From Candidatus Thermosaccharophagus tengchongensis (GTDB taxonomy: Bacteria; Armatimonadota; Fervidibacteria; Fervidibacterales; Thermosaccharophagaceae): 64,000 bases of DNA. The position numbers and the translations under genes are program-made. Each line of letters starts with the position of its first letter. The first letter of the stretch is position 1. Below the pieces are notes generated by a model, which saw only the letters and a program-made list of their open reading frames with translations, made no database searches and was not told the origin of the DNA. The stretch lies in the NCBI GenBank assembly GCA_032161105.1, contig JAVHTD010000016.1; one strand, given 5' to 3'. This document shows, piece after piece, positions 3,934-50,707 of the stretch.

Positions 3934-4875
3934 TTAAAGCGTGTCTGGCACTGGGATGAGGTCAAGCATCTCAGCAACAATCTGTTCTGCAACCAAACCC
4001 TCAGCTTGGTATATCGGTTTGACGATGAGACGGTGCGCAAGCACATCAATTGCAAGCGCCTTTATGTCATCGGGCGCAACATAATCCCTGCCATATATTG
4101 CCGCTCTTGCTTGAGCGGTGCGTGTGAGGAATAGAGAACCTCTCGGGCTTGCACCAAGCAGTAAGCGTTCGTCCTTCCTCGTTTGATGAATTATGCGCAG
4201 CACATATCCGTAGATCAAATCGCTCACAAATACTTCCCTCACCTCCCTCTGCATCTCCAGCACTTCATGCGCATCCGTAACCGGATGAAGCGCCTCAAGC
4301 GGGTGCGTCAAGCGCTGCTCAATTAGCACTTGCTTTTCCTCATCTGGGTTCGGGTAGCCGAGCCTCAAGCGCATGCAAAACCGGTCAACTTGCGATTCTG
4401 GAAGCACGAAGATGCCCTCGGGCTCAATTGGGTTCTGCGTGGCAATGATGAAGAACGGTTGCGGCAACTGGTAGGTGACACCATCAACTGTGACTTGATG
4501 CTCATCCATACACTCAAGCAGGCTTGATTGCGTTTTTGGTGATGCCCTGTTTATCTCATCGGCGAGCACTATGTTGGCGAATATTGGACCCGGTCGGAAG
4601 ACGAATCTGCCATCATGAAAGAGATACACATTTGTGCCAATGATGTCCGATGGTAGAAGGTCAGGCGTGCATTGTATCCGCTTGAATGTGCACCCGAGTG
4701 ATTTTGCGAGTGCCTTTGCGAAAGTCGTCTTGCCGACACCGGGAATATCCTCAAGCAGGATATGTCCACCTGCCAACAACGCTATGATCGCCTTCTCAAT
4801 CACATCGTCTTTTCCGATAATGACCTTCTTCACTGCCTCCTTTACCTTCTGCGCCCAGCTTTTTACATCCCTCAT
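3934..4875 (-). CDS. MoxR-family AAA+ ATPase
   Basis: Walker A is LEDIPGVGKTTFAKAL and Walker B is NIVLADEINRASPKTQSSLLE. The MoxR-type ...IIATQNPIEPEGIFVLPESQVDRF motif is also present. The ORF track starts at GTG 4887, which has no SD. ATG 4875 (MRDVKSW) follows GTGGTG plus 6 nt. Confidence 0.92.
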   Translation of the reverse strand: MRDVKSWAQKVKEAVKKVIIGKDDVIEKAIIALLAGGHILLEDIPGVGKTTFAKALAKSLGCTFKRIQCTPDLLPSDIIGTNVYLFHDGRFVFRPGPIFANIVLADEINRASPKTQSSLLECMDEHQVTVDGVTYQLPQPFFIIATQNPIEPEGIFVLPESQVDRFCMRLRLGYPNPDEEKQVLIEQRLTHPLEALHPVTDAHEVLEMQREVREVFVSDLIYGYVLRIIHQTRKDERLLLGASPRGSLFLTRTAQARAAIYGRDYVAPDDIKALAIDVLAHRLIVKPIYQAEGLVAEQIVAEMLDLIPVPDTL

Positions 4876-4923
4876 TTGAAACACCACACGCGCCGTATCT
4901 CATGCCCAAGCGCATCAACTGCT

Positions 4924-5013
4924 CTAACTCTTACGGCTGCGTATAAGCGAAGATATAAGCCACAGCGCCACAGCCAGCGCAAGTATCACCATTGCGATTT
5001 CAAATGGACCCAT
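4924..5013 (-). CDS. Candidate 29-aa single-TM micro-protein (below the ORF-track cutoff)
   Basis: The reverse complement reads ATG GGT CCA ... = MGPFEIAMVILALAVALWLISSLIRSRKS*. GGTGAGGGTGA lies immediately upstream. The ORF sits between the DUF151 gene and MoxR on the same strand. There is no homology evidence. Confidence 0.3.
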   Translation of the reverse strand: MGPFEIAMVILALAVALWLISSLIRSRKS

Positions 5014-5060
5014 TCACCCTCACCACTTGCTTGCGTCCTTTCCTCCGTCGCTGCTGCAGC

Positions 5061-5765
5061 TCATGTTCTCTTTGACTGACCGCCTTCGCTTTCGCCCATC
5101 GGTTCCATGAAACTCGCCACTTGAGGAGTCAGGTAAACTGGGGAGTTAGTCCGCAACGCAAGCGCAATGCTGTCGCTCGGGCGGGCATCAATCTCTTGGA
5201 CTCTACCAGCGCCCTTTAAAACTATGCTCGCATAGTATGTCTGCGCCTCCATCTTGTTGATGACGACGCGTAGAACCTCTCCGTTTAACGCCTTGATCAC
5301 TGTGGTGAGCAAGTCGTGTGTCATTGGGCGAGGCGGTTTCTTCCCAGAGAGAGCCATAGCGATGGCGAGCGCTTCCGAAGACCCAATCCATATCGGCAAA
5401 TACTTCCGTGAGCCCTTGTCAACGAGCAAAACGACCGGCTCACCAACTTTGTCAGTGACAACGCCGCTAACCTCAACGCGGATATAGTCGGATGGAACTA
5501 CCTCCGGTTCCTTCTGCCCCGCCTTTGTAGCTACCTTACGGCTTCCAATGGCGTTGGCTTTGACCTGCTGTTCATCCCCCTTTGCCGCTCCAATTTGGTT
5601 TTTAACATTTGCGCCCTTGCCCCATCCCATGCGCTGCAGGAAAGGCGACATGGCATCTTCAAGTTTTTTCCATAACGACATTGCGACTGCCGCACCAAAC
5701 AGAGCTGCAAGTGAACATGCCTTCATAAATTCCCTCCTCCACATGCGCTGCCTGATGTTGAGCAT
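5061..5765 (-). CDS. Bifunctional-nuclease-domain (DUF151/BFN) protein with an N-terminal hydrophobic anchor or signal
   Basis: BFN core: LPIWIGSSEALAIAMALSGKKPPRPMTHDLL ... YYASIVL ... EIDARPSDSIALALR. The N-terminus MKACSLAALFGAAVAMSLW is hydrophobic. AGAGGGGTGG lies 5 nt upstream of ATG 5765. Confidence 0.85.
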   Translation of the reverse strand: MLNIRQRMWRREFMKACSLAALFGAAVAMSLWKKLEDAMSPFLQRMGWGKGANVKNQIGAAKGDEQQVKANAIGSRKVATKAGQKEPEVVPSDYIRVEVSGVVTDKVGEPVVLLVDKGSRKYLPIWIGSSEALAIAMALSGKKPPRPMTHDLLTTVIKALNGEVLRVVINKMEAQTYYASIVLKGAGRVQEIDARPSDSIALALRTNSPVYLTPQVASFMEPMGESEGGQSKRT

Positions 5766-5829
5766 TTAAACCACCCCTCTTTGGCCGAGTTTCATAGCCC
5801 GCCATAAGTGGCATTATGCTATTATAAGC

Positions 5830-7944
5830 TTGGCGCAGAGCTCAGTTAATGTGCTTGTGTTTGGAGAGGAGTCCAAGCCGCGCCTCCGTCACATCTTCAA
5901 TGCGTTGAGAAAGCAGGCACCCAAGCTCGTCTCATTGCAAGCTTGTGTGCCTGCTACACCGATGGAGGCATTTTCATCTATGGCAAGAAAGCAATTGATT
6001 GAGGTGAGCGTGGAAAAGAAAGAACGAGAACTTCTGGCAACGCCTAAGGCACTCCTATTAGCCTTTGCTCTCGTCATCGGAATAACGGTTGCAGGTTGCT
6101 TTTCGGCATACTTGCGTTACGACCTAATTGGCACCGGTCATCTGCCACGCTGTGCGCTTTTCCCGATAATGGTGCTCACGCTCCTCAATAGCCTATGCAA
6201 GCGCCTCCTCGGCAGGGCAATCCTATCGCAATCCGAACTGCTCTTCATCTATTGCACGGTGCTCGTCATGACGGGCATACCGGGTCAACAATATGCCGAT
6301 TACCTCTACCTCGGTCTTTTAGCGCCAGTGTATTACTCGCATCCGAGAAACATGCCGGAGCTGCTCCAATACGATGTCCCGAATTGGCTCGCCTACATAC
6401 CAAGCTGCTTTTTGCCCTCAAAAGACCCGCGCAGTGGGGTCATAGCATGGGCATTTGAAGGTATGTCCGAGGGTGCAAAGATACCGTGGCAACCTTGGGT
6501 CATCCCATTGATGGTGTGGACGATATTTTATGCAGCACTGTTCTATGCAGCGATAGGGATTGCCACCGTGTTACGCAAACAGTGGGTTGAAAATGAGAAG
6601 CTTGTCTTCCCACTCGCCCAAGTCCCAATTGAAGTTGCAGATGAGGTTCGCTTGGGAGCTCTGGTGCGTAACCCGCTGATGTGGGTTTGTTTCATGATCC
6701 CTACCTTCATTTACACCGTGCGTGCCATTCACATTTACTTCCCGAGCTTCCCCAACATCAACATCTACAGAAACTTTGGCGTCCTGTTCAGCGGGCGACC
6801 TTGGGATGTGCTCAACTATATGCCGCTTAACTACTACTTTGACATGATCGGAATCACATACCTTATCACGACCGATGTCGGCTTCAGCTTCTGGTTCTTT
6901 TACATCGTTAGGAGGATGCAAATGGTCGTAAGGTCAGCTCTCGGTTTGACGGACTTTTATGTCCCGCTTGAGTTTCAGACCATCGGCGGGCTGCTCGCTC
7001 TATTCGCCATGCAAGTGTGGGTGGCGAGAGGATACTTAAGGGAGTTCATCACAGCAGCTTTACACCGAGAGGGAAAAGGCAGTGCGAATCAGACAAGGGT
7101 ATCGCCGCGCACAGCGCTCCTCATCATTTCCATCAGCTTTGTTGTTCTCCTTTTATTTGCGCGCGCCATTAACCTATCGCTGCATTGGGCTATGCTGCTT
7201 TTCGCCATCCACTTTATCTGGAGGATACTCGTTGCACGAATGGTGGCTGAGGCTGGTCTCTTTGTCTTCTGGACACCATCACCACACACATTTATCGTCA
7301 GGGCATTCGGAAAGGATGTAATCGGTCCGAAGAACATCACCGGGCTCAACATGATCGGTTCAAAGCTGAACGACTCCGCAACATGCGTATTGGCTCAAGC
7401 TGTTCAGACAATGAAGATAGCCAATGCAGCTCGCCTGAACGAAATTCAAGTCCTCAAATTGACGATGGCATCGGTGCTCATTTCCATGCTCGCATGCCAC
7501 CCAACATGCATTCACATACTCTACACAACACCAATACCAAAGATGGGTTGGTGGACAAGGGGCTATCCAGCTGGTATGGCTCGCACACTGCTCAACCAGC
7601 TCGTGCAAGACCAGAAAATGAAAACGGGTGACTACATCTCGCTCCTCTCCGGAGGCATCGTCACAATTGCGCTGTGCATGCTCAGGTGGCGTTTCCTCTG
7701 GTGGCCATTCCACCCACTCGGGTATGTGGCAGTAAATGGGACTTGGTTTGGCGACAGGTATGGCTTCAGCATCTTCTTCGGGTGGGTGATCAAGGCGATG
7801 ACGCTGTGGTTTGGCGGGATAAGGCTCTGGCAAATGCTCAGACCTGCCGCAATGGGCTTGATACTCGGAAACACCTTTATCCTCTTCCTGCTGTTGCTCC
7901 TTCACTTCTTCAAGCCGACAAATGAGGTCGTCGTCATTGAGTGA
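5830..7944 (+). CDS. Large polytopic membrane protein, paralog A of a three-member family of unknown function (possibly the DUF6785/DUF6784 type)
   Basis: The 704-aa ORF begins at TTG 5830. A more likely start is ATG 5980 (MARKQLIEV), which follows GGAGGC. It has many predicted TM segments. It shares the motifs EKLVFPLAQVPIE, YFPSFPN, ITTDVGFSFWFFY and FHPLGYV with the ORFs at 9238 and 15636. Confidence 0.8.
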   Translation: MAQSSVNVLVFGEESKPRLRHIFNALRKQAPKLVSLQACVPATPMEAFSSMARKQLIEVSVEKKERELLATPKALLLAFALVIGITVAGCFSAYLRYDLIGTGHLPRCALFPIMVLTLLNSLCKRLLGRAILSQSELLFIYCTVLVMTGIPGQQYADYLYLGLLAPVYYSHPRNMPELLQYDVPNWLAYIPSCFLPSKDPRSGVIAWAFEGMSEGAKIPWQPWVIPLMVWTIFYAALFYAAIGIATVLRKQWVENEKLVFPLAQVPIEVADEVRLGALVRNPLMWVCFMIPTFIYTVRAIHIYFPSFPNINIYRNFGVLFSGRPWDVLNYMPLNYYFDMIGITYLITTDVGFSFWFFYIVRRMQMVVRSALGLTDFYVPLEFQTIGGLLALFAMQVWVARGYLREFITAALHREGKGSANQTRVSPRTALLIISISFVVLLLFARAINLSLHWAMLLFAIHFIWRILVARMVAEAGLFVFWTPSPHTFIVRAFGKDVIGPKNITGLNMIGSKLNDSATCVLAQAVQTMKIANAARLNEIQVLKLTMASVLISMLACHPTCIHILYTTPIPKMGWWTRGYPAGMARTLLNQLVQDQKMKTGDYISLLSGGIVTIALCMLRWRFLWWPFHPLGYVAVNGTWFGDRYGFSIFFGWVIKAMTLWFGGIRLWQMLRPAAMGLILGNTFILFLLLLLHFFKPTNEVVVIE

Positions 7945-7970: not shown

Positions 7971-9092
7971 TCATGCGAAATACCTTCCATGCTCCTCAAC
8001 CGTTTCAACCATTGCCTTCAAATTCTCCCACTTGGCATCTGCGGGAACTTCATCACCCGTGACGAGTATGTAGGCGCCGCCTTCCATGCCCTCTGCAAGG
8101 CATCTCAATGTCTCCCTGCGCGCATCCTCAACCGTGCCGAATGAAAGCACGACACAGTTAAAGTTGCCCATGATGCAAACCCTGTCACCATACAATCGCT
8201 TTGCCTCACACAATGTTATGTCGCCTTGATTTGGTTCAAATGTCTCAATGAAGTGGACACCGGTGTCAACGAGCATTGGGAGAAGCTCCCTCACTCTGCC
8301 GAGCGTATACAAGCCGAGATACTTCCCACGCGTGCCCCTTACAAGCTCCATAGCTGCAACCACATCAGGGAGCACCCATCGTTCAAACATCTTCGGGCTC
8401 ATATTAGCCCCGGTTGCCCAGCAGATGTCAAGCCATGCAACTTCGGCTGGTGAGGCTATGAATGCTTCAACATACTTTAGCATCACTTGCCTGCCTATCC
8501 GCATCACCTCCTCCATCGTATCCGGGCAATCAAAGAGGTCAAACAATAAATCCTGCATCCCACGAGCCTCCCCAGCCATCGTGAAAGCTGGCACAAGACC
8601 AACACTTGCAATGCCATCCTCACCCATAACGGCTACTGCCTCCTTCACCGCTTCAAACTCAAACCCCTTAACCGATGAGAGCCACCGCTCATGGTAATCA
8701 ATCCACACTCCCCAGTCGTCGGTTGACTTGACCGGATATTCAACTGTCTTCCCGACGAGTGGGTCATGAGGTATCATTCCGCTGATGTGCTTTCCAAAAA
8801 GCGCTTTCTTCGGCGTCCTCAAGACTATCTCGCTGATGATGCGCCCACCCGACTCGGTTGAAATAACCCTTCTACCATACTCCCATCCTTCGGGCATCAT
8901 AACGGATACGCTGACACCCAATGGACCACGAAAATAAATGCTGCCCAGCATCTGATGGACCTCAAATACTGCCCTCCAATCGGACCTCCCAAGAAGCTTG
9001 TGCGCATAACGGCTGTGTATCAATGGAGCTACAGGAACGATATCCGGAACGCCACGGCGCAATGCCGTCATGAAACGCTCCCTCTTCGTCAT
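7971..9092 (-). CDS. Uroporphyrinogen-decarboxylase (URO-D) fold family protein, not in a haem-synthesis context
   Basis: The N-terminus MTKRERFMTALRRGVPDIVPVAP is typical of URO-D/MtaA-like proteins. The length and the C-terminal ...VTGDEVPADAKWENLKAMVETVEEHG also fit. Start refined to ATG 9092, which follows GAGGGTGA plus 5 nt. Confidence 0.8.
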   Translation of the reverse strand: MTKRERFMTALRRGVPDIVPVAPLIHSRYAHKLLGRSDWRAVFEVHQMLGSIYFRGPLGVSVSVMMPEGWEYGRRVISTESGGRIISEIVLRTPKKALFGKHISGMIPHDPLVGKTVEYPVKSTDDWGVWIDYHERWLSSVKGFEFEAVKEAVAVMGEDGIASVGLVPAFTMAGEARGMQDLLFDLFDCPDTMEEVMRIGRQVMLKYVEAFIASPAEVAWLDICWATGANMSPKMFERWVLPDVVAAMELVRGTRGKYLGLYTLGRVRELLPMLVDTGVHFIETFEPNQGDITLCEAKRLYGDRVCIMGNFNCVVLSFGTVEDARRETLRCLAEGMEGGAYILVTGDEVPADAKWENLKAMVETVEEHGRYFA

Positions 9093-9237
9093 GCCCATCA
9101 CCCTCAATCTGATTCAATGAAACTCACCGGAACGATAAGTTAGGGCGCACCGATGAGCCGCCTTGCGTATCATTGTAGTAGTTGCAGTGTTGAACTTGTA
9201 AGGTCAAATTTTTGTAGCGAAGCTGCCTTTAAGCACG

Positions 9238-11301
9238 ATGCCGAGCCACCCAAAAAGCTCGTTAATGAGGTGTGCAGGATTGCACCATGACAGGCTTTCG
9301 GACAGCCATATTGAGCGCGGCGCCATTGAAACGGGGATAACGGAAACAGGACAGCTCACCTTTGCAAGAGCAACCCCACGCATAGCGTATGTGCTTATCG
9401 TTGCCATCGGATTGAACATACTTTGTGGAATATGGATAAGGCAAGCCGAAATTGTGGTATTGGCAACACAGGTCTCAGAGGCAGTTCCGCCAGTGCCCGC
9501 AATCGGCGTCTTGCTCCTCCTTCTCATCACCAACATGCTGTTAAAGTTAATTCACCCCGCACTCGCGCTCAGCAGGGCTGAAGTGATGCTCGTTTACTTC
9601 TTCACGACGATCGCATCGTCGCTTCCCGGGTGCGGCATCGTGCGCTTCCTGTTTGCGCTCATTGGCACACCAATTTACTATGCATCAGCTGAGAACGAGT
9701 TTGACACCGTCCTTTGGCAAAACCTCCCAAGATGGCTTATACCGATGGACAAGGATGCAATGCGCTCACTTTATCTTTCCTCACCCGCCGGAGTCCCATG
9801 GGGTATATGGCTACCGAAGCTGGCTTGGTGGACGCTCTTCTTCTTGCTCTACTGGATTTGCTCACTTGGGCTTGTGTCGCTGTTTGCAAGGCAATGGTGT
9901 GACAAGGAGAAGCTCGTCTTCCCACTCGTGCAGCTGCCGTTGGAGATAACCAAAATTGAGGGCGGCAAGCTCACCTTCTTCAGGGACAGGCTGATGTGGA
10001 TTGGGTTTATCGCCTCCTCATTCTACAACGCTATGAACATGCTTAACGCTTACTTCCCATCCGTGCCGGCTTTTGGGAAAATGTTTGACATGGGCGCTTC
10101 ATTCGTTGAATCACCTTGGAGGGCGCTACGCCCACTCATCATCTGGTATCGTCCCGAACTCGTCGGATTTGGTTTTCTCGTCCCAACGGATGTCTCACTC
10201 TCAATCTGGCTCTCATACATGCTGATTAAGCTGCAAGCATTCGTCGGAGAGGTGATCGGATACAGGTATCCCGGCTATCCGTTTGCGCAAGAGCAAAGCC
10301 TTGGAGCATACATTGCTATGGCAATTTACCTGCTCTACACGGCTCGCCTTCACATATGGGAGGCATTGATAAGGGCTTTCCGGCACAGCACCGCCGCTCA
10401 TGGCGATGAGCAAAATGAGGTGGCTAACCCGCGCCAATCGCTCATGCTCATCGCTATTGGCTTTATCGGGATGGTGGCATTCGCATCAGCAGCTGGGATG
10501 GCTACTTGGCTTGCATCGCTATACTTTGCGATCGTCATTGCGGTGGCTTTTGTTTACGCACGCATAAGGGCGGAAGTTGGCATACCACTCATTTGGATGT
10601 TCCCATTCTTCCAGCAGAAGCGCTCCATCACATACACGCTTGGGACGAGGAGATTGCTTGAGAGGGGTGGGGTGAAGAGCATGGCAACATTTGCGCTCTT
10701 CACATTTATGGCTCGCGGGTATTATCCGGAGTTGATCGGATACCAGATTGAGGGCGTCAAGATGGCTGATAGCGCCGGCTGGAAGCGAAGCGCCATCATA
10801 CCTTGGAGCATACTCGCTCTCATCATCGGACTGTGGATTGGCTTTTACTTCCATCTCACCCCGTATTACGGCTACGGCGCTGTTAGGCTTCGTGGCGGCA
10901 TATGGGGCACTTGGCTCGCAATGGAGGAATACCGAGCTGTGGTCAGTGCAACGCATATACCATCACCACCGGAGATGCCCAAGGTCATAGCTACGATCGG
11001 CGGCGCAATATGCGTCTCACTATTTGCCGCCATCAGGCTGCTGTTCCTTCAAGTTCCGATACATCCGCTCGGATACGCAATGGCTGGAGCTTATGGCGAC
11101 CTCATCTGGGGACCGTTTTTCATCGTCTGGCTTTTGAAGACGCTCATACTGCGCTATGCTGGCGGGGTAGCTTATAGGAAGTGCATTCCACTCTTCCTCG
11201 GCTTCGCGCTTGGACACTACTTCACCGCCGGGTTGGTCTGGGGGCTGTGGTCTGTGACTGGAGCTGAGGTGTTCTCAAGATATGGAGTGTGGTTCGGATA
11301 A
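9238..11301 (+). CDS. Large polytopic membrane protein, paralog B of the unknown family
   Basis: 687-aa ORF with motifs EKLVFPLVQLPLE, YFPSVPA, LVPTDVSLSIWLSY and IHPLGYA. It is divergent from the URO-D-like gene across a 145-bp gap. Confidence 0.8.
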   Translation: MPSHPKSSLMRCAGLHHDRLSDSHIERGAIETGITETGQLTFARATPRIAYVLIVAIGLNILCGIWIRQAEIVVLATQVSEAVPPVPAIGVLLLLLITNMLLKLIHPALALSRAEVMLVYFFTTIASSLPGCGIVRFLFALIGTPIYYASAENEFDTVLWQNLPRWLIPMDKDAMRSLYLSSPAGVPWGIWLPKLAWWTLFFLLYWICSLGLVSLFARQWCDKEKLVFPLVQLPLEITKIEGGKLTFFRDRLMWIGFIASSFYNAMNMLNAYFPSVPAFGKMFDMGASFVESPWRALRPLIIWYRPELVGFGFLVPTDVSLSIWLSYMLIKLQAFVGEVIGYRYPGYPFAQEQSLGAYIAMAIYLLYTARLHIWEALIRAFRHSTAAHGDEQNEVANPRQSLMLIAIGFIGMVAFASAAGMATWLASLYFAIVIAVAFVYARIRAEVGIPLIWMFPFFQQKRSITYTLGTRRLLERGGVKSMATFALFTFMARGYYPELIGYQIEGVKMADSAGWKRSAIIPWSILALIIGLWIGFYFHLTPYYGYGAVRLRGGIWGTWLAMEEYRAVVSATHIPSPPEMPKVIATIGGAICVSLFAAIRLLFLQVPIHPLGYAMAGAYGDLIWGPFFIVWLLKTLILRYAGGVAYRKCIPLFLGFALGHYFTAGLVWGLWSVTGAEVFSRYGVWFG

Positions 11302-11420
11302 AAGCAGCTTATAAAATGTGGCTCACCTTGGAAGGCGATATTCCAGCCAAATCAAGACTTTGCGTCAGTTGGGCATTTGCTTCCCCACAAAAACACGGAA
11401 ACCCATCGGGGGGTGAAACA

Positions 11421-12899
11421 ATGGGCAGCATGAAATGGCGCAATACGAGGCGAGGCAGCTCAAAGAACAAAAGCACCGATGCTGTGCCGCTATGGGCGGG
11501 CAGGTTCACGGAGAAGCTATCAAGGGAGGCATTTTCATTCTCATCGTCATTCCCTTACGATAAACGCCTGTGGAAGTTTGACATAGCCGCAAGCATAGCG
11601 CATGTGCGCATGCTCGGGGCATGCAATGTGATTTCCGATGGCGAGAGCAAATTGCTCTCAAGCGAGCTTGAAAAAATGATGCGAGAGATAGAGTTGGGCA
11701 AGCTCAAGCTTGAGGGAGAGTATGAGGACATACACTCGTTCGTTGAGAGTGCCCTCACGAAGCGAATTGGTGATGTCGGAAGGAAGCTGCACACGGCGCG
11801 CAGCCGAAATGACCAAGTCGTAACGGATATGAAACTGTGGATGCGCTCAGCGATAGCGAAGCTGTGCGAGGCTATCTGTGAGCTGTGTGAGGCGCTTCTA
11901 TCGGTCTCGCAGAAGCACATTGATTTTCTCATGCCCGGATTTACACACCTGCAACATGCACAACCAATTCGCCTATCGCATCACCTCATGGCTTACTTTT
12001 GGATGATGCAACGGGATGCCGAGAGATTCATGAGCTTACACGAGCGCACAAATTTATCGCCGCTCGGCGCCGGGGCGCTCGCCGGAGTTGATTTCCCGAT
12101 TGACCCACGCATGACCGCAGAGATGCTCGGATTTGACGGGTGTATGCAAAACAGCATTGATGCGGTGAGCGATAGGGACTTCATCATTGAGTTCATTTCG
12201 TGCTGCGCAACCGTGATGATTCACCTGAGCAGGCTCGCAGAAGAACTCGTCCTTTGGAGCGCGCCCGAATTTGGTTTCATCAGGCTGAGCGAATCGCTAT
12301 GCACGGGGAGCAGCATGATGCCACAAAAGCGCAACCCGGATATGGCTGAGTTGATGAGGGCGAGATGCGGCAGGGTCATCGGCGCACTCGTTGCGCTCCT
12401 GACCGCACTGAAAGGCTTACCGCTCTCATACAATCGTGACTTGCAAGAGGACAAGTTGGCTATGTTTGAGGCATTTGATGTCACGCATTCGTCAATTCGC
12501 ATGGCTGCGGCGCTGATCACAACCGCAGAGTTTGACCGTGAGAGGATGCGCTCATCTCTCATCGGCGATTTCTCAACAGCGACCGATTTGGCAAGCGAAC
12601 TTGTGCGCAAAGGTATACCATTCAGGCAAGCACACTCAATTGTCGGGAAAATCATAAGGGAGCTCATCCGGCAAGGCAGGACGCTTGAAGATGTCACAGT
12701 TGATGAACTAAAGCGGCACTGCGATGCGTTTGACGAGGCTTCATTGATGGCTATCAAGCCCGAGGTCTCCGTTGAGAGGCGAGTTGAGTTGAGCGGGACG
12801 GCAAAGGCATCTTTGAGGCGGCAGTTTGCCGAGGGTAAGCGCTTCATCAAGAGGCTGCAAAAGTTTGTTGCCGGGTTGAAATTGTTTGGAGAACCTTAG
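11421..12899 (+). CDS. argH: Argininosuccinate lyase
   Basis: LWAGRF near the N-terminus, then SRNDQV, GFTHLQHAQP and the fumarate-lyase signature GSSMMPQKRNPD. The ORF-track start 11289 overlaps the upstream gene. ATG 11421 follows GGGGGGTGA. Confidence 0.95.
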   Translation: MGSMKWRNTRRGSSKNKSTDAVPLWAGRFTEKLSREAFSFSSSFPYDKRLWKFDIAASIAHVRMLGACNVISDGESKLLSSELEKMMREIELGKLKLEGEYEDIHSFVESALTKRIGDVGRKLHTARSRNDQVVTDMKLWMRSAIAKLCEAICELCEALLSVSQKHIDFLMPGFTHLQHAQPIRLSHHLMAYFWMMQRDAERFMSLHERTNLSPLGAGALAGVDFPIDPRMTAEMLGFDGCMQNSIDAVSDRDFIIEFISCCATVMIHLSRLAEELVLWSAPEFGFIRLSESLCTGSSMMPQKRNPDMAELMRARCGRVIGALVALLTALKGLPLSYNRDLQEDKLAMFEAFDVTHSSIRMAAALITTAEFDRERMRSSLIGDFSTATDLASELVRKGIPFRQAHSIVGKIIRELIRQGRTLEDVTVDELKRHCDAFDEASLMAIKPEVSVERRVELSGTAKASLRRQFAEGKRFIKRLQKFVAGLKLFGEP

Positions 12900-12975
12900 A
12901 ACCTTAAACGGGCAAGGTGTGGGGGTGCTTTAGCCTTGGCTTTTGAACCATCACGGCATCGGTGAGGTGACAGCG

Positions 12976-13854
12976 ATGCAAAAGTTTGCGTTCCGAACTC
13001 AAGCTGTCCCACTCGGATATGAGGGCGTCTCATTACAAGTTGACGGCGTTGAAGTGGTCCGCTACCAAACTGGGATGAATGCATGGCGTCCATTTCTATT
13101 CCCAGTGTTTGGTCCGTCTGGGAGAATGGTCACTCGCATCGGTCATCCGCATGACCCACATGGGCACCGCCATCACTACTCAATCTGGATGGGACACGCC
13201 AATGTCAACGGGCTTAACTTTTGGAGCGATGACACGAACAACAAACAAGTTCATCGGCGCTTCATTGAACTCGGAGATGGCATTGATAGAGCGTGGTGCG
13301 CTGTTGAAATTGATTGGGTGGCAAATGGAGCAAAGCCATTGCTGCGTGAGCGCCGAACAATAGCCATGACATATCCGCGCAAACCCGATGATCACAAAGG
13401 GTTTTGGCTGCTTGACATCGTGAGCGAGTTTGAAGCGCTTGAAGAGACCGTCACCTTCGGTGTAACTCCATTTGGGCTGCTCGGCGTGCGTGTGGCGAAG
13501 TCAATGGGAGTCCGTGACGGTGGCGGACGAGTCATGAACAGTAACGGGCAAATCAATGAGCGCGAGACGATGGCACAAAGGGCGGCATGGTGTGATTATT
13601 CTGGATGGGTGGCTGAGGGCGTTTGGGAGGGCATTTGCATTTTTGACCACCCGCAAAACTTTGACCATCCACCTGCATGGCATGTCCGTGACGATGGCTG
13701 GTTCTGCCCGTCGCACTTCCGCCATATGAGTCTACACATCGCTAAGGGTCACTACGCGAAATTCCGCTACAGGATCGTTATACACAGCACGGGGTTTGAA
13801 AGGGAGGAGCTCAACGAGCTGTATCGCCAGTTTGAAGGGGAGTTCAAAGGTTGA
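12976..13854 (+). CDS. PmoA-like / DUF6807 family protein (no signal peptide seen)
   Basis: Family motif: RPFLFPVFGPSGRMVTRIGHPHDPHGHRHHYSIWMGHANVNGLNFW. It is a paralog of the ORF at 34677. Start refined to ATG 12976, which follows GGTGAGGTGA plus 5 nt. Confidence 0.8.
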   Translation: MQKFAFRTQAVPLGYEGVSLQVDGVEVVRYQTGMNAWRPFLFPVFGPSGRMVTRIGHPHDPHGHRHHYSIWMGHANVNGLNFWSDDTNNKQVHRRFIELGDGIDRAWCAVEIDWVANGAKPLLRERRTIAMTYPRKPDDHKGFWLLDIVSEFEALEETVTFGVTPFGLLGVRVAKSMGVRDGGGRVMNSNGQINERETMAQRAAWCDYSGWVAEGVWEGICIFDHPQNFDHPPAWHVRDDGWFCPSHFRHMSLHIAKGHYAKFRYRIVIHSTGFEREELNELYRQFEGEFKG

Positions 13855-13915
13855 CGATAGTTTGAACCAAGGGTGAGGCATCAGCTGCACTTGCTCCCTT
13901 GACTCGCCGCGCCGT

Positions 13916-14566
13916 TCAATCATGGCACCGGGCGCATAGCTGTTTTGGTGCCGATTTAAGCAAGCCCTTGATGCTGGATGCATGTGTTGAATGGCACATT
14001 GTGCACTGCTCCATAGGTTGCTTTGAATGATGATGCTTCAACTCAAACTCAAGTTCGCTGTGGCATTTATCGCACGCGGATGGAACGAGCGCTTTGCCGA
14101 GGGCTAAACGGCTGTTTTGCTTCTCAACTGCATGACATGAAGTGCATTGAAGCTGCCCCTTCGCTGTTGGCGGATGGGAATACAGCTCCCCCCACCCCTT
14201 CGGTGGTTCTTTCGCACTGCCTCCCTTCACATAGACTGACAGCGTGGCATTGCCAACTTTGACAGCGTTCAACCCCGTAGTCAGCCTGACATGCGCGGCG
14301 AGCACAGGCTGGGCGAAAATTTCGTCCCACGATTGCACGGAGCCGTTGATGAGCAATTCGGGCAGACTGGAATGCCCCTGTGAGTCAACTCTCGTGAGCA
14401 TACAGATGACCGTTACCTCGCTCCTTGAGAGCGTGGAATGGTTTTGCGGGAATATGAACTTCACCGCTACTGGCTCTGCCATCTCCCTCATGCTGAGCGC
14501 TTTTACAAACCCGCCAACAAACGCCAACGGGAACAAAAGGACCGCACAATAGTATCTCACTGGCAC
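13916..14566 (-). CDS. Tetraheme c-type cytochrome (cytochrome c3/c7-like C-terminal module) with an N-terminal signal or anchor
   Basis: Four CXXCH motifs cluster in the last ~80 aa: CTSCH, CDKCH, CTMCH and CARCH, the last one residue from the C-terminus. The N-terminus YYCAVLLFPLAFVGGFV is hydrophobic. Confidence 0.85.
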   Translation of the reverse strand: MPVRYYCAVLLFPLAFVGGFVKALSMREMAEPVAVKFIFPQNHSTLSRSEVTVICMLTRVDSQGHSSLPELLINGSVQSWDEIFAQPVLAAHVRLTTGLNAVKVGNATLSVYVKGGSAKEPPKGWGELYSHPPTAKGQLQCTSCHAVEKQNSRLALGKALVPSACDKCHSELEFELKHHHSKQPMEQCTMCHSTHASSIKGLLKSAPKQLCARCHD

Positions 14567-14572
14567 GCCAAA

Positions 14573-15538
14573 TCACACCTTGCCGTATTTTCTCGTGTAG
14601 TTCGCGTTCTCGGTGACCTCATCTGTGAAGCGTGGATACATGCCCACAATTACGGCGTCCGTTTTCTTGATTTTCTCAAAGGCATACCTGAAGGCACTCT
14701 CAACTTGAGCCTTTGACCAACACTTCCGCCCGGCTGCGAGTATTTTAAATCCGAGGCATGGCTTGTTAACGCTCCTCATAACCGCCGTCATCTCATCGGG
14801 ATCGGATTCAAAGAACGGTTCATCAACTGGCACCTTACCGAGCTGCTTCAACATTTCCTCCCTCGGGCGAGTGACATAGTAGAAGCAACACATGAAGAAG
14901 TCGTTTTCCCAACCCTCATCCATGATGCGTTTAATCACCTCAGGGTTGTGCGCTGACACACCGGCGAGTGCTCCATGGTCATGAACCTTCTTCACGAAGT
15001 CGTGCACCTGCTGCGCCTTGCCAGCCCTGAAAAGCGCGTCTGTGACACCGCCGTGATGGGCTATAGCTATCGGCTTAAGCTTCATCACTTCCCTTATGGG
15101 CACATCCGTTGGGCGCTCCGCATGCAGGCATATAAGCTGTATTTGGCAGCCCCGTTCTCTGGCAATCTGAATGGCTTTGACTGTCTTGTCGGTGTAATCA
15201 AATTGCCATGTGTTGATACCTTGGCGCTCGCAGTGAATGAGGAATTCAGCCGTCCTCTCTGCGGTAAACCACTCGCGCATGTGCACGGACATGTGCCATG
15301 TTGAATGCGAATGCCCACCTATTGGGTTATAGCCGGCTATAAGCCTTGTGACTTTGTATTCTCCGAGCCTGATCGTCGGGAGCAATTCTTTCGCCGGCTC
15401 CTTAGACCAGTGGCTGATTTCCTCATCCTTACCAATAGCTGTCGTTGCGGCGATAGCCAGAGCACCAATGGAAGACAGGAAAGCCCTCCTTGAAGCTGCG
15501 TCTTTGAATTCGGTGACACTGTCAAACTGCTGCCCCAT
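14573..15538 (-). CDS. Tat-exported protein of unknown function (family not recognised)
   Basis: Twin-arginine signal ASRRAFLSSIGALAIAATTAIG. ATG 15538 follows GGAGAGGTGA plus 7 nt. The stop lies 6 nt upstream of the cytochrome gene. Confidence 0.7.
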   Translation of the reverse strand: MGQQFDSVTEFKDAASRRAFLSSIGALAIAATTAIGKDEEISHWSKEPAKELLPTIRLGEYKVTRLIAGYNPIGGHSHSTWHMSVHMREWFTAERTAEFLIHCERQGINTWQFDYTDKTVKAIQIARERGCQIQLICLHAERPTDVPIREVMKLKPIAIAHHGGVTDALFRAGKAQQVHDFVKKVHDHGALAGVSAHNPEVIKRIMDEGWENDFFMCCFYYVTRPREEMLKQLGKVPVDEPFFESDPDEMTAVMRSVNKPCLGFKILAAGRKCWSKAQVESAFRYAFEKIKKTDAVIVGMYPRFTDEVTENANYTRKYGKV

Positions 15539-15635
15539 CGTTAAATCACCTCTCCGAGCGAAAAATGTTTCAATGGCATTGGGCGACCTATCCACAAATT
15601 ATGATCCCTCGGCTCGCTGAGGAGTTCTCCCTCCT

Positions 15636-17603
15636 TCACTCGTTGAATCGGTAAACCTCTTTGTCAAACAGCACCCCGTATAAGTTCCACAGCCCACCGC
15701 TGACGAAATCACCAATGACTAACCCGATGAAGAAATTGCGAGCCGTGTAATAGGCAATGGATGAGCCATATCGTATCACCGCAGCCTTGCACATCCACGC
15801 GATGAACATGGGAAACCAAACCATCTCCATTGACCATGTCCCAGAGACCGCATAGCCGACTGGATGCAATGGAAAGTTGATGAAGTTAGAGCGAAGGAAG
15901 TGAAGCAGCCAGACAAAGCCGCCCCCACCAATGACGAAGCACATCGCACCATAGTTTGGCTTACGCTCAACGCTCAGCCATGGGATGAGATACCAGTTGT
16001 ATGCCTCCCATCCAAAGCCTCTCTGAGCACCGCCGACTTTTGAAGATGCAGCACCAAGACGATAGTATGGGATGAGAAGCGCATAGCATGATGACGGTAT
16101 CCCGAGAAGGATGGCTATCCACAGCGCGAGCCACATTGATTTTCCGATGCCGATACGCTCGCCTATCACGAGCCCTTCCATTGCTGTGGGCATCGGGTGG
16201 CTTCGCTGTGCCCTTGTGAACCAGTAGTAGAGAGTGAAGACTGTCAATGTCTTCGGTGTGAAAGGTTTTGTGCCGACCATCTGAACCATGACCACACCCG
16301 GGTTGGCGAAGTGAAGGTCATGGACTGGCGCCCCAAACTCACCGCGCAGCCTTGCGACAGTTATTGAAACGAGCGCATAGGAGACGAAAAAGATGGTGGC
16401 ATATTGCGGTTGCATCCCCGCATGTATGCTGAACCAAACTGTGAAGGCATACCCAAACACGACAAGCATCCATGCCATCTTCGGCGAAATGACAAATCGC
16501 TCGCCCACGCGCGAGCCGAACTTGAGCGTCTCAACGAGGTGTTTCCTCGCCGTCCAAAGCGTCAGCAAGCCCAAGCCGACATACGCGCCGAAGGATTGCT
16601 CATGTGGGTATGGCGGATTCCCTATACCCCCCGTCGGATAGCCAAATGCAGCCACAATAACACGCTGCATCTTCCAGACGAGATAAAAGAACCAACTTGA
16701 AAAGAGCAAATCGGTCGGGAGAAGGAAGCCAATGCCAATGGCAAATGGGAAGAAGTTAATCGGCGTCCAGCCGAGGGCATTCCACGGGCGCGATGTGATG
16801 TATGTGCCGAGGTTAATCTTGTGGGTGTGCATCTCTGGAACGGACGGAAACATCACATGCAAGTTATTAAGCGTGTTCACAAATGCCGGGATGGCAAAGC
16901 CGAGCCAGAAGAGATTGTTGCGATACATGCCCATTTCGGTTATGTGGAGGGCGAAATGAGCCAAAGGGAAGGAGAGCTTCTCACGCTGCACCCACTGCGG
17001 TATCAACAGGATGCATAGCCCCATGAACATGGCAAGCATAGCGAGCCAAAAGCACCACCACCACGCCAATGGGCGAAGCCATGCAAGAAAGTTCTGTGCC
17101 CTCCAAACTGTGGAGCCACCAACATACATGTCCCGCAGCGCCGCAAAGTCGGTCACCACGATCCAGCTGGGCAAATTCGGCATGATCAAATCCTCGTATC
17201 TATTGGTCGGAGCTTTGAAGTAATGCACATGCCCAATGACTGATAGCAGAACTTGCGATTGGTCATGCCCGACAAGAGCGCTGCCAACACCAAGGGAAAA
17301 ATAAATGACGAGCAGTTCGGCTCGCGTGAATGGCGCTCTCTTGAACGCCATCAGGCAAAGCCTGTTCAACCAATACAGCGCGAGGAGAAGGAGCACAGTG
17401 TTGAAGTAGAGCGAATAAGTCGTAGGATGCCCAGTCCACTTAACAGCCTCCATCCAGCCAACCCAATAGGCATTCAGGGGGATGAGCAGGGCTGAAACTG
17501 CGAAGGCTCTGAGCCGCACAACTTCCCTCTCTTCCAGTTGGCGCAGAAGTTCAACTCGGCTCGCTGTCACGAGTGAACATCTCCGCTGAGTGGGCTCTCG
17601 CAA
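15636..17603 (-). CDS. Large polytopic membrane protein, paralog C of the unknown family
   Basis: 655-aa ORF with motifs EKLSFPLAHFALH, MFPSVPE, LLPTDLLFSSWFFY and LHPVGYA. The ORF-track start is TTG 17603. In-frame GTGs at 17570 and 17519 have better SD context. Confidence 0.8.
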   Translation of the reverse strand: MREPTQRRCSLVTASRVELLRQLEEREVVRLRAFAVSALLIPLNAYWVGWMEAVKWTGHPTTYSLYFNTVLLLLALYWLNRLCLMAFKRAPFTRAELLVIYFSLGVGSALVGHDQSQVLLSVIGHVHYFKAPTNRYEDLIMPNLPSWIVVTDFAALRDMYVGGSTVWRAQNFLAWLRPLAWWWCFWLAMLAMFMGLCILLIPQWVQREKLSFPLAHFALHITEMGMYRNNLFWLGFAIPAFVNTLNNLHVMFPSVPEMHTHKINLGTYITSRPWNALGWTPINFFPFAIGIGFLLPTDLLFSSWFFYLVWKMQRVIVAAFGYPTGGIGNPPYPHEQSFGAYVGLGLLTLWTARKHLVETLKFGSRVGERFVISPKMAWMLVVFGYAFTVWFSIHAGMQPQYATIFFVSYALVSITVARLRGEFGAPVHDLHFANPGVVMVQMVGTKPFTPKTLTVFTLYYWFTRAQRSHPMPTAMEGLVIGERIGIGKSMWLALWIAILLGIPSSCYALLIPYYRLGAASSKVGGAQRGFGWEAYNWYLIPWLSVERKPNYGAMCFVIGGGGFVWLLHFLRSNFINFPLHPVGYAVSGTWSMEMVWFPMFIAWMCKAAVIRYGSSIAYYTARNFFIGLVIGDFVSGGLWNLYGVLFDKEVYRFNE

Positions 17604-17659
17604 CCCCCGATAAGCGATTCAACCAATCGCCCACGCATCCGCTAAAAGATCAAGTTCCA

Positions 17660-18547
17660 TCAACTCACCCCGGAACGAATTATCATTGTGCCGATGCCCT
17701 CGTCAGTGAACAACTCCATCAAGAGCGCATGCGGTATAGCACCGCTGATTATATGCGCTTTCTCAACACCGCCCTTGAGCGCCTCAATGCACGCTTGGAC
17801 TTTCGGGATCATGCCCTCACCTATGACGCCCTCTTCAATCAGTCTGAGAGCATCCTCATCGGTGAGCGTTGAAATCAGCGTCAACTCATCATTCTGGTCA
17901 CGGCATATCCCGCGCACATCGGTAAGCACAATCAACTTCGCCGCATGAATGGCGGCTGCCAACTTGCCAGCAACATGATCGGCATTCAGGTTCAGCGTCT
18001 TGCCATCCTTATCGCTGCCGATTGAAGCGATCACCGGTATATAGCCGTTGTCAATAAGCACCCTTAGGACATCGGTATTGATGCTCTCCACTTCGCCGAC
18101 GAAGCCCAAGTCAACACCTTCGGTCTCGTCTGGGGTCAGGCGGCGAGCGGTGAACAGGTTGCCATCCTTCCCACTTAACCCGATCGCCCTTGCGCCATTT
18201 TGATTGAACAGCTCAACAAGCTCCTTATTCACACTGCCAGTGAGGACCATCTCAACTATCCTGACTGTTTCCTCATCAGTGACTCTCAACCCGCCGACGA
18301 ATTTCGGCTGCTTGCCCATTTGCCTCATCACTTCGTTTATCTCAGGACCTCCGCCGTGAACAAGCACCGGCTTTATCCCGACATAGTGCAACAGGACAAT
18401 GTCAGCAATGACCTGCTTCTTTAACTTCTCGTCAACCATAGCCTTACCGCCATACTTGATCACGATATGCTTCCCGTAAAAGTGCCGTATGTATGGCAAC
18501 GCCTCAATTAACACCTGAGCGCGCTTTTGAAGTTCATCGTTGATCAT
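17660..18547 (-). CDS. argB: Acetylglutamate kinase
   Basis: IVIKYGGKAM, PVLVHGGGPEIN and GGLRVTD, with full-length collinearity to ArgB. Confidence 0.95.
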   Translation of the reverse strand: MINDELQKRAQVLIEALPYIRHFYGKHIVIKYGGKAMVDEKLKKQVIADIVLLHYVGIKPVLVHGGGPEINEVMRQMGKQPKFVGGLRVTDEETVRIVEMVLTGSVNKELVELFNQNGARAIGLSGKDGNLFTARRLTPDETEGVDLGFVGEVESINTDVLRVLIDNGYIPVIASIGSDKDGKTLNLNADHVAGKLAAAIHAAKLIVLTDVRGICRDQNDELTLISTLTDEDALRLIEEGVIGEGMIPKVQACIEALKGGVEKAHIISGAIPHALLMELFTDEGIGTMIIRSGVS

Positions 18548-33378: not shown

Positions 33379-33667
33379 ATCCGCTCACCCTCTATGCGCT
33401 CTACAGTAAGGCAACTTACAAAACGCTATGCGGATGAATTTTGCCCTTGCACTGCATTGCAAAGACACCGCGCACCTTCCAGCTGTGAATGTTAGCATTG
33501 CCAACCAACTTGAGCAAACGAAGATGCGTTCCGCTTGACGGTGTTCATGTGTCATTGCGGCTATAGCTTTACAGACCATATCCGACTGCCTATACTCATG
33601 AGCTGACCATTGGCTTCCAGTGATTGTGAATGGCAGACAAGCAGCCCAGCATGTGGAGGTGAGAGAT

Positions 33668-34492
33668 ATGGCAATGAGCATCGGCATCAACCTTGAGTTT
33701 GTCAGGCATGCTGATAAGCCATTTGAATACGGCATCCGCAAGGCAGCCGAGCTCGGTTACGAGTATGTTGAACCATGCGTTGCCACCGGTAGGGACTTGC
33801 TCGCCGAAGCCGGATACTATCACATGCTCTCCATGGAGGAAGACCCACTTTACTACAAGGCAATGCTTGATGAACTCGGACTTAAGTGCTCAGGGCTGTC
33901 AGCGCACTCACCGCTCATGAAACCAGAAGTTGCAGTGCCATACCTGACGCAGGCGATAAGATGGGCTGCTGACATCGGAGCGCCGGTCGTTAACACTGAT
34001 GAAGGACCTAAACCGGCGTGGATTGAAGATGACGAGGAGGCATTCGCAATAATGCGCTATACGCTCAAGCGTGTTCTCCCGGTCGCTGAAAGACACGGCA
34101 TCTATATTGCCCTTGAGCCGCATCAAATCTACACGACAAGGCTTGACACATTCCTCAGACTTCTTGAGCTTGTCCCATCGCCAATGCTTAAGGTCAACTT
34201 TGATACCGGAAACTGCTACCTTGCCGGCAATGACCCTGTTGAGTTTCTCAAAGCGGTTGCCGATAAGGTCGTTCATGTGCACGCAAAGGACATAAGCATT
34301 GAGCAAAGCGTTGATGAACGCGGAAAAGTCACGGGCACCCCGGTTGGATGTGCTTGCGGCGATGGCGTGATTGATTGGCAGGCGGTGATCAAGGTGCTTA
34401 AGGATGCCGGATATGAAGGCGTCCTATCGGTTGAATGTGGCACTGAGGAGCAAGCCGCAAAGAGCATCGCATATCTTAAGTCGCTCATTTGA
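33668..34492 (+). CDS. Sugar phosphate isomerase/epimerase (xylose-isomerase-like TIM barrel) family protein
   Basis: Shows LGYEYVE, IYIALEPH and KVNFDTGN...HVHAKD, the metal-ligand pattern of this fold. Start refined to ATG 33668, which follows GGAGGTGA plus 5 nt. Confidence 0.85.
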   Translation: MAMSIGINLEFVRHADKPFEYGIRKAAELGYEYVEPCVATGRDLLAEAGYYHMLSMEEDPLYYKAMLDELGLKCSGLSAHSPLMKPEVAVPYLTQAIRWAADIGAPVVNTDEGPKPAWIEDDEEAFAIMRYTLKRVLPVAERHGIYIALEPHQIYTTRLDTFLRLLELVPSPMLKVNFDTGNCYLAGNDPVEFLKAVADKVVHVHAKDISIEQSVDERGKVTGTPVGCACGDGVIDWQAVIKVLKDAGYEGVLSVECGTEEQAAKSIAYLKSLI

Positions 34493-34676
34493 GGGAGGGT
34501 TGAGTGAATTCAACCGCAAGTGAGATAGCTTTCCACCTTGCAATCAATTCCGATGGCGAAGTGATGCAACAGTTGAAGCAAACCGTAGCTTGCCCAATTT
34601 CTTCCGCGGTTAAAAGCGCTTATACCAGCATAGGGAATGCAACGAGCAGCGGCATTAGCTGCAAGGGGTGAATTTG

Positions 34677-35564: not shown

Positions 35565-35753
35565 ATGGCAGTGTGCAAATTGTAAATGATGGACAGGCAA
35601 CATTTCTTGGTAGGGTGAGGCTCCTGCCGAGCCCAAACTCACATTTATAGGCTCACCGGGAGGTTCGCCCTCCCTGTGGCATCACTTACAATGTGCATAC
35701 CACCAGATAAATTGCGGAGCGATTGGCTAAACCCGTCCTCGGTGGTGAACGAA

Positions 35754-50424: not shown

Positions 50425-50437
50425 TGAATCACCGCCC

Positions 50438-50707
50438 TTAAAGCGCATCTGGAGCTCTAACTCTGACGAGTATCCTTCCCGCCATACCTCTGCCGATGGC
50501 AACCCTTACACCCCTCACACTGACCAACACGGGACCAATGGGGGCATTTTGGATCACGGAGATCTCCGCACCCACCGTCACACCCAAGCTGCTCAAGCGC
50601 GCCAACATCCCTCTGCCACCGCATATTGTCTCAACGATGCCGCTTTCACCGGGTGAAAGGTCGCTCAGCGGAATTACCCTTTGACATCCCGGCTTCTCGC
50701 TTTTCAT
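50438..50707 (-). CDS. feoA: FeoA (SH3-like ferrous iron transport accessory protein)
   Basis: LSDLSPGESGIVETI ... RLSSLGVTVGAEISVIQNAPIGPVLVSVRGVRVAIGRGMA. Confidence 0.9.
   Translation of the reverse strand: MKSEKPGCQRVIPLSDLSPGESGIVETICGGRGMLARLSSLGVTVGAEISVIQNAPIGPVLVSVRGVRVAIGRGMAGRILVRVRAPDAL

Follow-up and report, generated by a model that had tools for sequence, protein, structure and literature searches.

A row of four genes on the minus strand of the 64,000-nucleotide (nt) stretch of contig JAVHTD010000016.1 analyzed here (the window) raises the question of which of them form a functional unit and what such a unit would do. The original prediction placed argB, a large membrane protein (paralog C), a protein with a twin-arginine translocation (Tat) signal and a cytochrome with four CXXCH motifs head to tail, with gaps of 56, 97 and 6 nt, and the open reading frames (ORFs) show this very layout. 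The Tat protein (14573-15538, minus strand, 321 amino acids (aa)) is assigned as a Tat-signal (β/α)8-barrel protein from its twin-arginine motif and an AlphaFold2 model; the tetraheme c-type cytochrome (13916-14566, minus strand, 216 aa) is recognized by its four CXXCH motifs and a Paired_CXXCH_1 match. Between the barrel stop codon and the GTG start of the cytochrome lies a 6-nt spacer (14567-14572, minus strand). The comparisons described below show that these two genes constitute a conserved, self-contained module in which the cytochrome is a dedicated partner of the barrel, and that paralog C is a lineage-specific neighbor, not a conserved component of this module.

The barrel and cytochrome genes form a two-gene module

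Among 72 metagenome loci located via the cytochrome, all of the testable ones, that is, those in which the cytochrome match is full-length and the sequence extends at least 300 nt upstream, carry the barrel gene directly upstream (38 of 38); at loci that match the heme part alone and belong to other multiheme proteins, the barrel is upstream in 0 of 31. This type of cytochrome was found only beside the barrel. In the forward direction, 80 genome loci located via the barrel include 32 with the cytochrome directly downstream on the same strand, 42 without it and 6 that are cut off, so that the cytochrome is present in 32 of the 74 testable loci. The linkage is kept across Armatimonadota, Planctomycetota, Nitrospirota, Hydrogenedentota and Verrucomicrobiota. 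The tight coupling of the Tat protein to a small multiheme cytochrome that had been noted for this single locus thus extends over at least five phyla.

The spacing of the two genes is equally characteristic. When the cytochrome start codon nearest to the barrel stop is chosen, the distance in the 67 pairs is -4 nt in 24, -1 nt in 9 and between -10 and +30 nt in 51, a stop-to-start arrangement that, to judge from the sequence, would be of the kind seen with translational coupling; none of these 67 pairs is fused into a single ORF. An earlier clustering of neighboring genes was confounded by antisense ORFs in high-GC loci, and the clustering was repeated; by similarity clustering, no third gene family occurs within 4 kb in more than 5 of the 58 non-redundant pair loci, and the individual neighbors, assigned with Pfam both upstream and downstream, are heterogeneous. 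Taken together, the reverse linkage, the spacing and the lack of a recurring third gene identify the cytochrome as a dedicated partner and the pair as self-contained.

The tetraheme cytochrome

The four CXXCH motifs of the cytochrome, at residues 141, 165, 188 and 211, all fall within its last 76 residues, and its N-terminus is hydrophobic (residues 3-26), compatible with a signal or an anchor. The protein matches Pfam Paired_CXXCH_1 (PF09699) with 46.1 bits against a cut-off of 20.6 and TIGR01905 with 37.7 bits against 25.2, and it falls slightly under the thresholds of the c7 and c3 Pfam models. In 19 orthologs the motifs are invariant or nearly so at only 21-54% identity, and therefore do not represent a chance pattern. 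The same orthologs retain the overall layout, in which a variable linker joins the hydrophobic N-terminus to a β-rich domain (~100 residues) and the four CXXCH motifs come last. Four further histidines, H131, H178, H180 and H195, are invariant in this set and suffice to provide second axial ligands, so that the cytochrome probably carries four hemes that are all bis-His ligated.

The best relative among solved structures is MtrA, chain A of 6r2q, which we take to be the Shewanella baltica MtrAB-MtrC complex: the heme module (the last ~100 residues) aligns to MtrA residues 188-282 (6r2q_A) with an E-value of 2e-19. The PDB copy that we used labels this chain 'Cystathionine beta-synthase', and the aligned sequence is plainly that of a multiheme cytochrome. 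The spacing of the CXXCH motifs and the distal histidines is common to the two proteins; the cytochrome described here differs in having an additional N-terminal β-rich domain and in the lack of a porin partner encoded nearby. Membership in the MtrA/DmsE decaheme family itself (TIGR03508) is rejected because the score of 50.7 bits is far below the cut-off of 192 and there are four hemes instead of ten. The NapC/NirT/CymA quinol dehydrogenases (PF03264) give no profile match, with a marginal local match to NrfH (7e-4).

The barrel protein, a predicted Tat substrate

Near its N-terminus the Tat protein carries ASRRAFLSS followed by a hydrophobic stretch; the window protein has SRRAFLSSIGALAIAATTAIG, which conforms to the S/T-R-R-x-F-L motif. 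Across 33 homologs, each of R17, R18, F20 and L21 shows conservation of 90% or more. Among these 33 Tat-type barrels, five match the Pfam TAT_signal model and seven match UCR_Fe-S_N. Such a conserved signal implies, as far as can be told from the sequence, export in the folded state. The ORF finder chose an alternative start at GTG 15595, which would yield a protein of 340 aa; ATG 15538 is the better start because it is preceded by a Shine-Dalgarno sequence, GGAGAGGTGA, at 15555-15546, gives the 97-nt gap of the original prediction and yields a 321-aa protein that is 100% identical to the database protein P0001.

The barrel belongs to a large family. Homologs make up more than 3,792 clusters at 90% identity (E <=1e-3), and a profile search of 1.84 billion cluster representatives (50% identity) yielded 1,596 matches at E <=1e-3. 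The best 120 homologs are 59-100% identical, and every source name among them is 'hypothetical' or 'Tat signal domain-containing'. Matches in genomes come from Armatimonadota, Planctomycetota, Hydrogenedentota, Nitrospirota, Verrucomicrobiota, Acidobacteriota and Sumerlaeota. Two loci carry other assignments, one with barrel and cytochrome to Ca. Nealsonbacteria (L023) and one with the barrel only to Bathyarchaeia (L032); because the family is distributed in diderm bacteria, these look like binning errors.

No Pfam or NCBIfam model matches the window barrel, no Pfam family other than the Tat-signal models appears in the 33 Tat-type barrels at E <=10, none appears in 10 distant homologs at E <=1, and PDB profile searches with two barrel alignments revealed no sequence relative of known structure. 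Profile scans detected no flavin, NAD or Fe-S signature in the barrel. The statement in the original prediction that the Tat protein contains no recognizable cofactor motif therefore holds in the Pfam, NCBIfam and PDB sequence searches alike, and a literature search found no paper on a pair of a Tat-exported triosephosphate isomerase (TIM) barrel and a tetraheme cytochrome, nor on DUF6785.

Structure prediction of the Tat protein, which had been proposed along with the original prediction, gave a model with a mean predicted local distance difference test score (pLDDT) of 80.8, exceeding 90 across most of the core, that consists of eight β/α units with an N-terminal β-hairpin in front, that is, a (β/α)8 barrel with no close solved relative. 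A Foldseek search against the PDB returned generic TIM barrels only, with template modeling (TM) scores of about 0.5. On the basis of this model, the protein is a predicted member of a large, unannotated (β/α)8 family.

Aldo-keto reductases top the Foldseek ranking with TM 0.41-0.50, and unrelated TIM barrels score about equally. The best matches are L-galactose dehydrogenase (7smi, 8scc), Gox0644 (3wbw), AKR11B4 (3n2t) and YdhF (1og6); both groups have an N-terminal β-hairpin before strand 1, and some short motifs are similar by eye (GIN..., GVS..., ...EN). The differences are that the TM score is only about 0.5, none of 33 members matches PF00248 at E <=10, hhalign against four E. coli members gives a probability of 0.8%, and the catalytic Asp-Tyr-Lys-His tetrad is not conserved, given that D114, K118 and H139 vary across the family and the barrel has no conserved Tyr. 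By these measures, the barrel is not recognizable as an aldo-keto reductase.

Other known barrels fare no better. For a class II aldolase the hhalign probability is 0.4%, and for a protein of the xylose isomerase-like barrel type (AP_endonuc_2, PF01261) it is 0.2%, with no Pfam match. The glycoside hydrolases (GH) of clan GH-A, which have a catalytic Glu at the end of strand 4 and of strand 7, do not fit either: in the barrel, strand 4 ends in HHGG, strand 7 carries K265, and neither has a conserved Glu. An Fe-S cluster is rejected because the cysteines of the barrel are neither clustered nor conserved family-wide: the four Cys do not group by strand position, as deduced from the secondary structure, and C103 and C137 are not conserved in homologs that lack the signal.

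Eight residues are conserved throughout the family (N71, H161, D167, H197, D213, D246, K265 and D294), and a further set is conserved in Tat-type barrels (Q112, D114, K118, C137, H139, H162, E211 and E240). Judging by the secondary structure of the model, strands 1, 3, 4, 5 and 7 appear to have N71, H139, H161, H162, H197 and K265 at their C-terminal ends or immediately beyond them, and D167 also appears to lie at or near such an end. The C-terminal strand ends are the usual catalytic face of TIM barrels, and the residue pattern suits acid-base or metal-assisted chemistry.

Homologs without a signal, of ~270 aa, cytoplasmic and likewise unannotated, occur in Clostridia and Lentisphaerae. They sit mostly in clusters for sugar catabolism, the contexts being sugar-related in four of five cases (L153 6001-6849, L162 6001-6849, L164 6001-6810 and L157 6001-6837). 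One of these contexts has a GH3 gene 17 nt downstream and a BNR_2 gene upstream; another has GH2 plus a malectin-domain gene; a third includes a Gfo/Idh/MocA gene 13 nt upstream, together with AraC regulators, an AP_endonuc_2 gene and a 2-hydroxyacid dehydrogenase; and in a fourth there is a divergent LacI regulator with GH51 and GH29. The fifth context is that of a divergent cytoplasmic homolog, P0260 (L159-L161, ~4694-7908), which overlaps the stop codon of a radical-SAM gene. The genes that follow P0260, for an aminotransferase, a 2-oxoglutarate-Fe(II) oxygenase-like protein and methyltransferases, resemble a biosynthetic cluster in a genome of gut Clostridia.

The neighbors of Tat-type barrels include a PIG-L deacetylase, a sulfatase, AP_endonuc_2, a pectate lyase, DUF1080 and a GH42/GH5-like protein. 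In a clade of Phycisphaerae and Pirellulales with cytochrome-less Tat-type barrels, the gene directly 3' of the barrel encodes a PIG-L-type deacetylase, identified with Pfam in L044 (10893-11894) and L060 (10966-11970) and by similarity clustering or equal size in L064 (10984-11985) and L079 (10964-11965).

Proposed function of the pair

The interpretation that we favor, with a confidence somewhat better than even, is that the pair consists of a periplasmic, cofactor- or metal-loaded barrel enzyme that acts on a carbohydrate-derived substrate and is wired to respiration through its own cytochrome. Under this scheme, the barrel would be loaded with a metal or an organic cofactor in the cytoplasm and then exported via the Tat pathway; folding and probable loading in the cytoplasm are suggested because the export is of the Tat type. 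In the periplasm, the enzyme would act on a carbohydrate-derived substrate, which is proposed because of the sugar-related contexts across the barrel family, and would exchange electrons with the four, probably bis-His, hemes of the partner cytochrome, as suggested by the very existence of a dedicated multiheme partner. The cytochrome would connect the barrel to the respiratory chain in this lineage of aerobic saccharolytic thermophiles. Oxidation of the substrate appears likelier than reduction, the direction not being established. Periplasmic oxidation that feeds respiration is plausible in view of the related Fervidibacter sacchari, an aerobic diderm that has a periplasm and a cytochrome c oxidase and sends many cofactor-bearing glycosidases through the Tat pathway (PMC11535203). 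In this lineage, paralog C, as a predicted DUF6785/DUF6784 importer, may bring in the product of the enzyme or some unrelated solute.

A bolder version, which we offer only tentatively and consider possible without regarding it as probable, is that the barrel founds a new class of periplasmic oxidoreductases, in which a TIM barrel would oxidize sugars or sugar-derived aldehydes or ketones and pass the electrons directly to an MtrA-like tetraheme cytochrome.

Several observations weigh against the assignment of the pair as a respiratory redox unit. The cytochrome is missing within 10 kb in 42 of the 74 Tat-type barrel loci; cytochrome-linked and cytochrome-less barrels interleave in a neighbor-joining tree, which also contains one large cytochrome-less clade from Phycisphaerae and Pirellulales; and no residue separates the two kinds of barrels. 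Because the signal-less cytoplasmic homologs retain the core residues of the barrel, its core chemistry may not involve redox at all. No cofactor or metal was identified in the barrel, the model of which was compared by fold only, and carbohydrate contexts count little in genomes that are rich in carbohydrate-active enzymes. Finally, with regard to the pair as the complete unit, paralog C lies 97 nt away with no terminator in between, so that read-through co-transcription is possible, and paralog C, the Tat protein and the cytochrome have been inverted as one piece relative to Ca. Thermosaccharophagus.

The main rival explanation, which we regard as unlikely, takes the retention of the core residues at face value: the barrel would act on carbohydrates by non-redox chemistry, for instance as an isomerase, epimerase, lyase or hydrolase that employs His, Asp and Lys and perhaps a divalent metal, and the cytochrome would be an accessory, which might keep an oxidation-sensitive metal or cofactor reduced in the oxic periplasm or serve as a redox sensor or gate. 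This explanation would account for the identity of the core residues in the cytoplasmic homologs and in the cytochrome-less Tat-type homologs, for the asymmetry whereby the cytochrome never occurs without the barrel and the barrel often occurs without the cytochrome, and for the lack of detectable flavin, NAD and Fe-S signatures. However, a dedicated four-heme protein is a costly accessory, and the translationally coupled pairing maintained across phyla implies a stoichiometric partnership. Moreover, the cytochrome-less loci include aerobic taxa (Terriglobia, Pirellulaceae), so that a role in protection from oxygen is not cleanly supported.

The adjacent membrane protein and the upstream region

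The next gene in the row, paralog C (15636-17603, minus strand, 655 aa), encodes a DUF6785/DUF6784 membrane protein (Pfam DUF6785, 3.5e-132, 441.9 bits; DUF6784, 1.1e-30, 106.2 bits), and both domains are matched by all 41 aligned members of the family. Its AlphaFold2 model has a pLDDT of 89.6 and a predicted TM score (pTM) of 0.90. In a Foldseek search, the model resembles the barley transporter YS1 (7wst, TM 0.64/0.69; 7wsr, TM 0.61/0.66; E 1e-7), and all other matches score below TM 0.2. The fold common to paralog C and YS1, that of the OPT/Yellow Stripe-like family (PF03169, TC 2.A.67), extends over more than 600 residues; at the sequence level the two differ, as none of the 41 DUF6785/DUF6784 members matches Pfam OPT at E <=10 and paralog C has no sequence-level match to any PDB chain. 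Thus, paralog C models as an OPT/Yellow-Stripe-fold secondary transporter. If the model is correct, this fold gives the family, which is expanded in Armatimonadota, a function that can be tested.

According to the original prediction, paralog C, the Tat protein and the cytochrome form one operon or complex, with the membrane protein as a substrate channel, a quinone-interacting partner or an anchor. We consider this scenario improbable, and as a conserved system the trio is largely refuted. What speaks for it is that the three genes are on the same strand, the 97-nt gap contains no terminator-like site, and the same three-gene order, with gaps of 50-65 nt, is found in Ca. Thermosaccharophagus, a member of the class Fervidibacteria (PMC12485897; taxonomy), the three genes being inverted as one block between the lineages. 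However, a check for co-occurrence of the trio in other genomes found the pair alone to be conserved: paralog C adjoins the pair only in one clade, which comprises the window, a metagenome contig that is 98% identical to it (L081) and two species of Ca. Thermosaccharophagus (represented by L002/L082/L084 and L003/L105). It is absent from the other pair loci examined and from L001, the locus of the closest barrel homolog (89% identity), where the barrel gene follows tad pilus genes after ~900 nt and there is no DUF6785 gene within 10 kb.

The orthologs of paralog C (62-69% identity) likewise have other neighbors. No Tat protein or cytochrome lies downstream of them; they sit behind genes for an HpcH/HpaI aldolase or pilin-like proteins and have opposite-strand genes downstream. 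In other Armatimonadota (L168 4198-6944; L170/L171 4189-6947), these orthologs start at the stop codon of the HpcH/HpaI aldolase gene or at most 12 nt from it, an adjacency that suggests a different conserved partnership for the transporter. Furthermore, the predicted secondary-transporter fold is not that of a redox or quinone-binding subunit; given this fold and an adjacency limited to one clade, the roles proposed for the membrane protein find no support.

The intergenic region between paralog C and the Tat gene (97 nt, 15539-15635, minus strand) contains the Shine-Dalgarno sequence and a -10-like CATAAT (15603-15598). No terminator-like sites were found in the 97-nt gap or in the 6-nt gap, promoter-like matches in the gaps are at the chance level, and the 97-nt gap shows no Rfam match or unusual RNA fold. 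Nevertheless, the window and L001, which have different genes upstream, share a conserved stretch of about 65 nt before the ATG of the Tat gene, CATAAT included (the stretches compared are 15539-15610, minus strand, in the window and ~9930-10000 in L001). Because this conservation persists where the upstream gene is a different one, the sequence comparison suggests that the pair has its own promoter or leader, which is another argument against the trio.

The position of argB is explained by the inversion of the three-gene block. In Ca. Thermosaccharophagus, the gene order is paralog B (+), argH (+), paralog C (+), Tat (+), cytochrome (+), argB (-), and in the window it is paralog B (+), argH (+), DUF6807 (+), cytochrome (-), Tat (-), paralog C (-), argB (-). 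Thus, the paralog C-Tat-cytochrome segment is inverted as a single block (the regions compared are 12943-17603 in the window, 8011-11577 in L002 and 7992-11581 in L003), with the orientation of argB kept. The DUF6807 gene (12943-13854) is located at the inversion junction and is present in the window only. It follows that the shared direction of argB and paralog C in the window is an accident. Because argB, the housekeeping gene for acetylglutamate kinase (17660-18547, minus strand; TIGR00761, 8e-84), which is separated from paralog C by 56 nt (17604-17659), is convergent with the cytochrome gene in Ca. Thermosaccharophagus, it is an unrelated neighbor and not part of any unit.

The Yellow-Stripe-like fold invites another explanation, namely, that the cytochrome and the barrel reduce periplasmic Fe(III) chelates and the transporter imports the metal complex. 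Its ingredients are that the membrane protein has one structural relative, YS1, which transports Fe(III)-phytosiderophores, that the cytochrome contains an MtrA-like heme module, and that the window includes a FeoB gene (48448-50502). MtrA-like heme modules serve metal reduction in other bacteria. We nevertheless deem an iron or metal-chelate system very unlikely: the link between the transporter and the pair is absent outside one clade, OPT-fold proteins carry peptides too, the three DUF6785 paralogs adjoin arginine-biosynthesis and aldolase genes, and the contexts of the barrel homologs are sugar-related, not metal-related. An accidental adjacency of the Tat protein and the cytochrome, with independent functions, is scarcely credible even though the cytochrome is missing from over half of the barrel loci, given the perfect outcome of the reverse test, the retention of the pair across phyla at 21-54% cytochrome identity and the 4-nt or 1-nt overlaps in 33 of the 67 pairs.

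Some other features of the window deserve mention. Two further DUF6785/DUF6784 paralogs were identified with Pfam on the plus strand (5830-7944 and 9238-11301), so that a span of 12 kb contains three paralogs, among which a URO-D-like gene (7971-9107), argH and argB are interspersed. The listed GTG start of the argH ORF (11289-12899, plus strand) overlaps the end of paralog B by 13 nt; this ORF carries ~70 residues ahead of the Lyase_1 domain, and the true start is therefore probably further downstream. A second DUF6807 gene (34668-35564) is located between a gene for an AP_endonuc_2 barrel (33620-34492) and one for a Gfo/Idh/MocA oxidoreductase (35676-37028), and the latter is followed by a gene for a GH95-like protein (37322-40429).

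Comparison with known systems

A periplasmic enzyme that has its own c-type cytochrome is a known arrangement, and the new element here is the catalytic scaffold, a large unannotated barrel family for which we found no Pfam or NCBIfam model, solved structure or paper. If the barrel is a redox enzyme, it would add a new catalytic scaffold to those that oxidize or reduce substrates in the periplasm, and would do so in polysaccharide degraders that are abundant and have received little study. Should the oxidoreductase interpretation be true, the pair would constitute an unrecognized route from extracytoplasmic carbohydrate oxidation to respiration in Armatimonadota, Planctomycetota, Verrucomicrobiota, Nitrospirota and others. 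The presence of the cytochrome partner in a part of the family also offers a spectroscopic readout for finding the substrate and the cofactor.

Periplasmic dehydrogenases with a dedicated c-type cytochrome include the sulfite dehydrogenase SorAB, flavocytochrome c sulfide dehydrogenase, and the glucoside 3-dehydrogenase and fructose dehydrogenase with their cytochrome subunits. By analogy, the pair described here would share with these systems a Tat-exported, presumably cofactor-bearing catalytic protein that is encoded beside a Sec-exported heme c partner in a respiring diderm. Unlike the catalytic subunits of the dehydrogenase-cytochrome pairs, the barrel has no molybdenum, flavin or pyrroloquinoline quinone (PQQ) signature and no family assignment, and in place of a His-Met class I cytochrome its partner has a β-rich domain followed by an MtrA-like module with four hemes that are probably bis-His ligated.

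The other relevant comparison is with the Tat-exported, NAD-dependent GH109, GH177 and GH179 enzymes of Fervidibacter (PMC11535203), in which the same class of organism delivers a cofactor-loaded carbohydrate enzyme to the periplasm. These enzymes differ from the barrel in that they adopt a Rossmann fold, as opposed to a TIM barrel, and have no cytochrome partner.

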